DNA of 64,000 bases, from contig QQRY01000040.1 in NCBI GenBank assembly GCA_003602575.1, positions 7,753-71,752 on the forward strand, read 5' to 3'. Of this stretch, positions 25,301 through 26,485 are shown in pieces; the stretch's first letter is position 1; each line of letters begins with the position of its first letter. Under the pieces are notes generated by a model. That model did no database searches. It saw only the letters and a list, made by a program, of their open reading frames with translations, and was not told the origin of the DNA. Source of the stretch: Candidatus Poseidoniales archaeon (GTDB taxonomy: Archaea; Thermoplasmatota; Poseidoniia; Poseidoniales; Poseidoniaceae). A program made the position numbers and the translations under genes.

Positions 25301-26485
25301 AGCGATGGTCATACTGAGTTGGAAAGACCGGTCTACTACACACCACCTGCATACGGTGAATCACTATTCATTGATGATTGGCAGGTCTTCATCACAGATA
25401 CAACCACTGAAGTATGGGTTGAGATGGATGTCGTAACTTGTGTACCTAACACTGGACCTTGTACTCCAACTGAGAAGGTATTACAACAAGATACACCAAG
25501 TTCACACCTATCAACAGTAGGTGCTAACCCGAACCCTTGGTCAGAACCAGGTAAGTCTACATCTAACAGAGCACCTGCTTTCGAAGATCGTAACTGGTGT
25601 AACAACTTGATGTCCACCAATGCAGTGGCTACTGACACCCCATTGTCGACTGTTGTTCTACAGAACAACTGTCAGCACACTTCTGACTCTTACATTGCTC
25701 AAGAGTCCGGATTTAGTGCACAACAATGGCAGAACACTGGTCAAGAACTACCAAACGTAGTTGGAACAATTGGTGCTCTATCAGTTGCTTCATTTGCTCC
25801 AAGTTTGATTGCAGTTTGTATGACAGGTCTGTTTGTTAGCGTCTTGGTCTTCTCCAGCCGTCGTGAAGATGATGAAGAAGAATCCAATGTTGACGATGTT
25901 CTATCTGCTGACGAATCTGCAGTGAGCCCTGTTATTGCTACAATTTTGATGGTTGCAATTACTGTCGTACTATCTGGTGTTGTATATGTTTGGGCTGCAC
26001 AACTTGCAGACACTGACACTAAGGGTGTACCAATTGTCACCTTTACTTCTGACAACGTCGATTCAGGAAGCCCTGACACCGACCACTGGAAGATTGTAGT
26101 TGGACAAGCAGCATCACCATTGGCGACACAAGCTGTTGAAGTATCAGTAACTTACGTAGATTCTGCGGGAGATTTGCAAAGCATTACAGTGAACCTCGGT
26201 TCAACAGATCAGGTATATGGTTTCACACCATATAACAGTCCTAACTCTATAGTGACCTTTAGCGATCTAGTAGATGACTCGAACCCTGATGAACTAGTCT
26301 CCTCTTTCGGAGCAGGTGATGAGATTTATGTTAGAACTCACATCCAAGAGTTTGATTCTGCAGGAACTCCTACAGTACTTCATCCATTGGTTGACGCTAG
26401 AGTTTCAATAACATACTCTCCTCCAGTAGGTGATGGTGCATTGTTGAAGACATACACTGGTATGACTTGGAATGAACCTGTTTGA
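10382..26485 (+). CDS. Giant (5,367 aa) mosaic surface adhesin-like protein: signal peptide, DSYGDG/Cys modules, parallel beta-helix repeats, cadherin-like repeats, TM anchor, C-terminal pilin-like module
   Basis: The ORF is an uninterrupted 16.1 kb. The N-terminal signal/TM is [24 protein letters not shown]. PbH1-type repeats include [66 protein letters not shown]/VNDEP domain-boundary motifs ([22 protein letters not shown]) are typical of cadherin-like repeats. The TM helix lies at nt 25757-25858. Confidence 0.85.
   Translation: [5367 protein letters not shown]
25922..26482 (+). other. Archaeal type IV pilin-like N-terminal domain (Pilin_N/DUF1628-type) plus about 160-aa globular part, in frame at the C-terminus of the giant ORF
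   Basis: [44 protein letters not shown]... matches the class III signal-peptide/pilin helix pattern (SPVI..IL.VAITV.L). The usual P-x-V-x-F strand follows. TM1 and the acidic linker [23 protein letters not shown] precede it. Confidence 0.65.

Follow-up and report, generated by a model that had tools for sequence, protein, structure and literature searches.

In a 64,000-nucleotide stretch of contig QQRY01000040.1 from a Candidatus Poseidoniales archaeon (assembly GCA_003602575.1, contig positions 7,753 to 71,752), referred to here as the window, a single open reading frame (ORF) at 10382..26485 on the forward strand encodes a giant surface protein of 5,367 amino acids (aa), the C-terminal end of which is made up of a transmembrane (TM) helix, TM1, a short acidic loop and a complete archaeal type IV pilin module. 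The fusion is natural, ancient and strictly conserved in Marine Group II (MGII; Poseidoniales) and relatives. We propose that the junction between the loop and the pilin helix may act as an internal class III signal, which prepilin peptidase would cut to give a TM-anchored surface protein and a PilA-type pilin, a reading to which we assign a probability of roughly 50%. An N-terminal position is part of the definition of class III signals and of type IV pilins, and a conserved internal copy would widen the substrate range of prepilin peptidases; if the junction is left uncleaved, the cassette would instead represent a pilin re-used as a membrane staple. The Poseidoniales are among the most abundant archaea of the surface ocean and are uncultured, and the cassette provides a concrete, testable link between giant surface proteins and the type IV filament machinery. 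The gene and the parts of its product that are discussed below are the following.

10382..26485, forward strand: giant surface-protein gene with the C-terminal cassette (ORF list, BLASTP)
10406..10495, forward strand: N-terminal signal peptide or anchor, aa 9-38 (Kyte-Doolittle peak 2.47; orientation inferred from the basic n-region)
20957..21313, forward strand: right-handed beta-helix (NosD-like) region of the ectodomain (Pfam Beta_helix 69.7 bits, NosD 34 bits)
25127..25516, forward strand: DomA, the last conserved domain of the ectodomain (BLASTP and tblastn to P0138, with 40% identity and E 7e-24, and to P0143 and P0145)
25757..25852, forward strand: TM1, stop-transfer helix, aa 5126-5157 (translation, hydropathy; R-R after the helix)
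25790-25804, forward strand: S-F-A-P-S motif at the outer end of TM1 (conserved)
25853..25921, forward strand: cytoplasmic acidic loop of 23 residues, aa 5158-5180 (translation, 70 homologues)
25921/25922 (A/V) or one residue earlier (S/A), forward strand: predicted prepilin-peptidase site (junction nearly matching that of Haloferax volcanii PilA2)
25922-26482, forward strand: pilin module of 187 aa, aa 5181-5367 (translation; the stop codon is 26483-26485)
25922..26011, forward strand: hydrophobic helix of the pilin, or H-domain (Pilin_N, TIGR02537; helix at residues 3-30 in the AlphaFold2 model)
26036..26482, forward strand: globular beta-sandwich of the pilin, predicted to be extracellular (AlphaFold2, Foldseek, homology to the hairpin-less paralogues described below)

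The frame has zero internal stops in both the ORF list and the translation, and translating 25400-26600 gives exactly the three C-terminal parts, TM helix, 23-residue linker and 187-residue module, that were quoted in the original prediction, which had been made from the letters of the window alone. By Kyte-Doolittle hydropathy, the hydrophobic segments of the whole protein are aa 9-38, a weak Gly-rich segment at aa 2543-2561 and the two C-terminal helices, with no others. The N-terminal signal or anchor would place the bulk of the 5,367-residue protein outside the cell and, since so few segments are found besides the two C-terminal helices, an out-in-out hairpin at the C-terminus is consistent with the sequence. 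When Pfam was run on the ectodomain, only the right-handed beta-helix scored above threshold, the Ig and cadherin-like matches lying below their cut-offs. The word adhesin, by which the protein was originally described, is thus a reasonable label for a putative function.

The C-terminal module is identified as a pilin by sequence profiles as well as by its predicted fold. Both of the hidden Markov models that had been suggested for checking aa 5181-5367 scored above their cut-offs: Pfam Pilin_N (PF07790) with 29.8-33.2 bits against a gathering cut-off of 25.2, and TIGR02537 with 34-43 bits against a cut-off of 20. Searched with a family profile, the Protein Data Bank (PDB) returned as its best sequence match 8fj5 (E 9e-12), which is the H. 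volcanii type IV pilus of PilA2, one of two major pilins (PMC10334743). The AlphaFold2 model of the last 187 residues (pLDDT 89.5, pTM 0.75) has an N-terminal helix (residues 3-30) followed by a beta-sandwich, and the model of the last 242 residues (pLDDT 82, pTM 0.65) agrees with it in showing a long helix and then a confident beta-sandwich, the arrangement found in archaellins and pilins. The top Foldseek matches in PDB were the archaellins 5z1l, 7ofq and 9eq7, the Cuniculiplasma divulgatum filament subunit 8rey and the soluble domain of FlaF, 4p94; these matches are moderate, with E-values of 6e-4 to 5e-3 and TM-scores (normalised either way) of 0.38-0.52, and that to FlaF (E 2.4e-3, TM-score 0.52) is not better than those to archaellins. 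Profiles and fold agree in supporting what had been proposed from the sequence, namely a complete archaeal pilin-like module that follows a TM helix and a cytoplasmic loop and has the topology of a prepilin. Its place in the chain is the C-terminus: the class III signal is not at the extreme N-terminus but comes after 5,180 residues, a TM helix among them, and the same is true in all orthologues.

To what extent the fused state is shared can be read from the relatives. A search with the last 242 residues gave 1,497 homologues, many of which span TM1, loop and pilin at 40-85% identity. The junction lies in one frame in three independent metagenome-assembled genomes (MAGs), Poseidoniaceae MGIIa LRMED-012, NAT37 and SI072_bin37, the first of which is long-read-derived and is the closest relative at 91% identity. 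It is likewise in frame in contigs L008, L010, L011, L013 and L014, while in L009 and L016 the frame is interrupted by a gap of ambiguous bases (N). An exhaustive profile search provided full-length representatives, in each of which the match falls at the extreme C-terminus: P0121 (4,595 aa), P0122 (3,639 aa, which misses the N-terminal part of the window protein), P0125 (4,572 aa), P0127 (5,559 aa), P0131 (4,539 aa), P0134 (4,640 aa), P0135 (4,372 aa) and P0136 (2,785 aa, which aligns with the window protein only over its C-terminal ~550 residues). In end-to-end BLASTP comparisons with P0127, P0121, P0125, P0131, P0134 and P0135, between 4,241 and 5,367 of the 5,367 residues were aligned at 24-60% identity. 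P0135 is encoded on a 3.0-Mb contig (L013) with 66.8% GC, as compared with 41% in the window, and nevertheless keeps the synteny with the PolD small subunit and CinA downstream. More generally, the downstream order HAD hydrolase, PolD small subunit, CinA, Pelota, FTHFS, flotillin is retained in L001, L008 and L009 and partly in L013, and the giant gene is apparently a syntenic, core gene of Poseidoniales. The module was fused in every relative examined, the question of fused versus separate forms having been raised by the original prediction, and five out of five checks of seemingly separate copies revealed no genuine split form. An automatic annotation has touched on the combination, NCBI MEC8576648.1 (4,578 aa) being labelled 'archaellin/type IV pilin N-terminal domain-containing protein'. 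The fusion is unusual. The original prediction knew of no described adhesin-pilin fusion of this kind, and in full-text literature searches and targeted reading we too met with no account of a pilin fused internally or at a C-terminus, including in the archaeal type IV pilus census (PMC4858521) and in work on MGII genomics (PMC6461757, PMC6336850, PMC6864105).

The junction itself was analysed in 70 aligned homologues. Measured against the window sequence, identity averages 90% in the pilin helix, 59% in TM1, 49% in the loop and 42% in the globular domain, and 21 of the 22 invariant alignment columns lie in the pilin helix, the remaining one being the Ala at position -1. Positions +1 to +19 are invariant except for +10 and +18. 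Upstream of the candidate cut, which in the window is D-E-S-A/V-S-P-V-I with the mark between A and V, position -1 is Ala in 70/70, position -3 is E or D in 69/69, position -4 is Asp in 65/69 and position -7 is Leu, Met or Ile, and the loop, counted from S/G-R-R up to the Ala, is 17-24 residues long, most commonly 20-21. Position -2 is, in contrast, free (Q 16, S 14, A 14, M 8, E 8, T 4, G 3, L 1). A fixed A or G at -1, a free -2 and a fixed stretch from +1 to +19 bar two positions are the pattern of constraint expected of a site that is used. The loop itself combines the tail of a surface protein with a leader-like segment.

In H. volcanii, PilA1-6 are listed as substrates of PibD, and FlaFind places their sites at DA/VS in PilA1 and PilA3, at 'DSAV' in PilA2 and at RA/VS in PilA4-6; their common H-domain is essential for pilus formation (PMC4371748). 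The window junction, D-E-S-A-V-S-P-V-I, is therefore almost a copy of that of PilA2. The residue at -2 in the window is S if the cut is placed between A and V, and E if it is placed between S and A, the register that FlaFind uses for PilA2 ('DSAV'). Across the family a charged -2 can be obtained in one of the two registers in about 39/70 and in neither in about 29-31/70 (those with Q, M, T or L). The same helix is found in the free-standing MGII pilins P0120, P0142, P0151, P0152, P0169 and P0154, behind the acidic leader N-E-E-A/V, in which -2 and -3 are both acidic. The absence of the usual basic residue at -2, which had been taken to make cleavage uncertain, is real, but it loses some of its weight as a sign against cleavage, since PilA1-3 have D-A/V-S or D-S-A-V and the MGII pilins N-E-E-A/V. 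It keeps part of that weight, because in roughly 40% of the orthologues, those with Q, M, T or L before the Ala, neither register offers a charged -2 together with an allowed -1.

The cassette is not confined to one kind of protein. A second, unrelated family of large proteins (P0246, P0247, P0253 and P0289), which are Gly-rich and contain ALK_LTK_GRD-type repeats, carries the same cassette and ends in ..SPSFAPS-TM-SRRRKKGRGKDDDA/VSPVIAIILMVAITIVLAGV, with the cut mark between the two segments, or in ..KKDEDG/VSPV. The site is canonical in this family, with Ala or Gly at -1 and Asp at -2. Since a second, unrelated family has it, the cassette can be considered a reusable C-terminal unit. In another archaeal contig, two such Gly-rich (ALK_LTK_GRD) surface proteins of 2.3-2.4 thousand residues are encoded in tandem (L014:2579-9811 and L014:10001-17029), and both end in SFAPS, TM helix, basic loop and D-E-D-G/VSPVIAIILMVAITIVL.

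A further group of relatives has lost the hairpin. In the smaller paralogues P0137, P0138, P0143, P0145 and P0149, DomA and the beta-sandwich of the pilin are kept, while TM1, the loop and the pilin helix are deleted, the flanks being joined by about 20 residues. When P0138 was aligned with the last 461 residues of the window protein, two high-scoring segment pairs were obtained, with 40% and 39% identity (E 7e-24 and 1e-18), and these flank the missing hairpin. The paralogues continue into Asp-rich repeats of the thrombospondin type 3-like kind and then into a TM helix and an acidic tail of their own. The window itself has no copy of a hairpin-less paralogue by tblastn, and a search with DomA alone gave 13 fragmentary matches and added nothing. 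These joined chains, a deletion experiment made by nature, show that both flanks of the hairpin lie on the same, extracellular side and that DomA and the sandwich are retained together even where polymerisation is impossible. The in-to-out orientation of the pilin helix and the cytoplasmic position of the linker, both of which were part of the original prediction, thereby gain independent support, as the paralogues join the flanks into one extracellular chain. The C-terminal sequence of the hairpin-less proteins, ..SSGLPSIG-TM-RRE, could be an anchor motif of another kind.

Could the fusion be only apparent? A sequencing or assembly error might have removed a stop codon, or the pilin might be translated separately from the GTG at 25922, as the original prediction allowed, or from an internal ATG, and indeed the databases list 'stand-alone' homologues of 176-186 aa (P0015, P0055, P0080, P0081 and P0093), and many orthologues have a Met at -7, -9 or -10. 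Every short call that was opened, however, traces to runs of N, a scaffold gap or a contig end. For P0015 the upstream frame is open across the whole contig and the gene call is broken by ambiguous bases, for P0093 and P0081 a 10-N scaffold gap falls within TM1 or the loop, for P0065 the open frame exceeds 3,249 codons, and for P0080 the contig begins at the junction; all five were therefore rejected as genuine split forms. The internal start at 25922 was rejected as well. The codon for the Val at +1 is GTG in several lineages and GTA or GTT in others, ATG is absent from the loop in the window, and upstream of 25922 no Shine-Dalgarno-like or TATA-like element was seen by eye. Since the codon varies and the loop has no ATG, a conserved internal start is excluded. 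As the three independent MAGs and all longer contigs examined read through the junction in one frame, and as the fusion persists in orthologues whose identity spans 24-60% and whose GC content ranges from 41% to 67%, the idea of a lost stop codon or a separate gene is refuted, and we regard an artefact of this type as extremely improbable. A different view of the hairpin is suggested by the outer end of TM1, where the motif is (V)P-S-F-A-P-S and, in GC-rich relatives, P-G-F-L/V-P-S, the P0136 and L013 orthologues reading T-P-G-F-V-P-S or A-P-G-F-L-P-S; the form P/S-x-F-x-P-S recurs in both cassette families. Motif, hydrophobic helix and RR(R) together have the layout of C-terminal tripartite signals (PGF-CTERM, PEF-CTERM, Heimdall-CTERM), and TM1 could accordingly be read as an archaeosortase-like sorting signal, at which the surface protein would be detached and lipid-anchored, leaving TM1, loop and pilin as a separate precursor. 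The likeness to the Heimdall-CTERM, PGF-CTERM and PEF-CTERM models is weak and below threshold throughout (15.4 bits against a cut-off of 24 for Heimdall-CTERM and 8.3 bits for PGF_CTERM), so that no sorting-signal model reaches its cut-off. Known archaeosortase-type signals are at the extreme C-terminus, whereas TM1 is followed by the loop and the pilin, about 210 residues in all. Neither was an archaeosortase gene present among the window ORFs scanned with Pfam (23 ORFs, two of them as C-terminal tails only; the remaining ORFs were assessed by eye or by synteny). Such dual processing seems quite improbable to us, if less so than an artefact.

The more serious competitor is a hairpin that is never cut. 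TM1 and the pilin helix would then form a two-helix membrane staple, with the sandwich packed on DomA outside the cell, either to strengthen the anchorage of the 5,000-residue ectodomain or to dock it to a pilus or archaellum platform or to the base of a filament, in the manner of unprocessed ArlF/ArlG. Several observations speak for such a staple and at the same time weigh against cleavage. Archaeal prepilin peptidases are reported to require G, A or S at position -1, a charged residue at -2 being critical for them (PMC4371748), while 62/70 sequences have one of Q, S, A, M, T, G and L at -2 in the A/V register. The hairpin-less P0137, P0138, P0143, P0145 and P0149, in which DomA adjoins the sandwich, show that the sandwich has a role independent of a polymerising helix. 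The narrow range of loop lengths (17-24 aa) and the unusually conserved TM1, 59% conserved and with a fixed S/G-F-x-P-S in two unrelated protein families, also suit a permanent helical hairpin. Against cleavage it further counts that we know of no natural substrate whose leader comprises a TM helix and thousands of residues. In the genomic surroundings, the Pfam scans of the 23 window ORFs detected no prepilin peptidase, secretion ATPase or platform protein, which bears out the earlier statement that the window has no prepilin peptidase or pilus ATPase gene; a scan of all fetched loci for the GxGD[x]K motif detected no A24 peptidase, and a T2SSF gene in L013 is the only machinery gene seen near any orthologue. 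The uncleaved form is further favoured by the Foldseek match to the soluble domain of FlaF (4p94, TM-score 0.52) and by the automatic JGI name of family members, 'FlaG/FlaF family flagellin'. What a passive anchor leaves unexplained is a helix that is 90% identical across lineages and common to free pilins, the strict A or G at -1 beside a freely varying -2, and the retention of the D-D/E-x-A/V-S-P-V-I motif of the PibD-processed haloarchaeal PilA pilins; docking would account for the helix, not for the constraint at -1. We regard the uncleaved hairpin as the chief alternative and a polyprotein that is cut as somewhat more likely, the sequence alone not separating the two.

The giant protein, exported by Sec, stops at TM1, the acidic loop of about 20 residues stays in the cytoplasm, and the pilin helix re-crosses the membrane from the inside to the outside, bringing the beta-sandwich to the outer face beside DomA. 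If the junction is cut, events might proceed as follows. The loop-helix junction would serve as an internal class III signal. Archaellins and pilins require prepilin peptidase, and the PibD/FlaK-type enzyme of the lineage, which would also have to process the free MGII pilins and archaellins, could cut D-E-S-A/V-S-P-V there or one residue earlier. The cut would give two products in a 1:1 ratio and in the same place, namely a giant protein with a type I anchor, whose short acidic tail would resemble the C-termini of the large surface proteins nearby, and a mature pilin. The helix of the mature pilin is the same as that of the free pilins, and it could therefore enter the same assembly platform or filament, while its sandwich would probably also contact DomA. 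The fusion probably arose when a stop codon was lost between a surface-protein gene and a pilin gene downstream, and with the peptidase restoring two proteins such a loss would have been tolerated. One could also speculate that the 5,180-residue surface protein acts as a 'leader peptide' whose released pilin, with the helix universal among the pilins of the lineage, binds its last domain and so couples the giant protein to a type IV filament or platform. We consider this unlikely; if true, the most abundant planktonic archaea of the ocean would join a giant surface protein to pili or archaella in a way not known before.

Among known systems, the closest are the H. volcanii pilins PilA1-PilA6 (Pilin_N/DUF1628; 8fj5), which have a near-identical junction and helix, an acidic rather than basic leader next to the site, an invariant H-domain common to several paralogues and a helix followed by a beta-sandwich, and the genes of which are likewise unlinked to assembly genes. 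They differ in that they are small and have their signal at the N-terminus after a leader of about 12 residues, where here 5,180 residues including a TM helix come before it; moreover, -2 is usually uncharged in the giant-protein family, and processing and assembly are here predicted. In modular type IV pilins, such as PilB and PilC of Streptococcus sanguinis, a pilin module is covalently joined to a large adhesive or functional module (PMC8179133). There the pilin module is N-terminal and the extra module rides on the filament once the leader has been removed, whereas here the order is reversed with a membrane hairpin in between; cleavage would here separate the parts, and without it the helix could not take its normal packing inside the core of a filament. 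Large proteins with Pilin_N at the N-terminus also exist in archaea, at 800-1,300 aa (P0184, P0229, P0232, P0236 and P0242). The stator proteins ArlF/ArlG (FlaF/FlaG) share the use of an archaellin-like N-terminal helix as an anchor together with an extracellular beta-sandwich. They are small and encoded in the arl operon, as opposed to the C-terminus of a 5,367-residue protein in a housekeeping neighbourhood, and to our knowledge they have no conserved peptidase site, whereas the site motif is intact here and the sequence similarity points to PilA-type pilins. That PibD-type enzymes also process proteins outside the classical filaments is known from the sugar-binding proteins of the Sulfolobus bindosome, which carry class III signals (PMC3047682). 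In those proteins, unlike here, the signal is N-terminal and the leader short. We know of no non-pilin substrate of PibD with an internal or C-terminal site.

As regards machinery elsewhere, an archaellum operon is present in all MGIIa genera (PMC6461757; PMC6336850; PMC6864105). The T2SSF (TadC/ArlJ-like) platform gene of the GC-rich contig, L013:1-1028, lies about 9-10 kb upstream of the giant fused gene, to which its linkage is uncertain, and it is followed by two small ORFs, one with the pilin-like N-terminus MRRGPMVSAEGGQMLLATGLVLILAL.

The module also matters for annotation, since gene callers and gaps regularly split it off as a false small 'flagellin-like protein'. Runs of N and scaffold gaps in the giant gene (L008, L009, L010, L011 and L016) have produced false small calls of 'flagellin-like protein' or 'type IV pilin', and fragments of the giant gene probably inflate the public counts of Marine Group II pilins. 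In a Red Sea metatranscriptome, the seventh strongest of the euryarchaeal transcription start sites belongs to a DUF1628 PilA-like gene (PMC5069720), which may be a free pilin or a fragment of the giant gene and would in the latter case speak for a separately expressed pilin.

The remaining genes of the window, assigned by Pfam, synteny and reading, include ABC transporters with FtsX/MacB permeases, a carboxyltransferase, a GatD-like asparaginase, the RFC small subunit, a HAD hydrolase, the PolD small subunit, CinA, Pelota, FTHFS, flotillin, an amino-acid permease and several other large surface proteins. The large surface proteins at 7040-10114, 36925-39792, 48567-57836 and 57862-60525 have a TM helix and an acidic tail at their C-terminus. 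In the last two (tails at 57450-57833 and 60100-60522) the poly-acidic cytoplasmic tails are long and have a Trp-rich end, reading ..EDWMIDYRVEDDGTEWGQ..VWYYREPGQSEWVEW and ..SSGWYVDVSEEVQYWNVGEDGSWTRV; the ending of P0138 is similar. These acidic Trp-rich tails matched no Pfam family and may be an undescribed cytoplasmic docking motif. MacB/FtsX-type ABC permeases lie near the giant surface-protein genes at 2195-6811 and 42793-45282, one of them unusually large at 1,538 aa with a very long extracytoplasmic region, and each is paired with an ABC ATPase (1482-2180 and 45292-45978). Finally, the amino-acid permease at 60550-62241 on the reverse strand carries a C-terminal pair of EF-hands (PF13499, 37 bits), which is unusual for an archaeal transporter.

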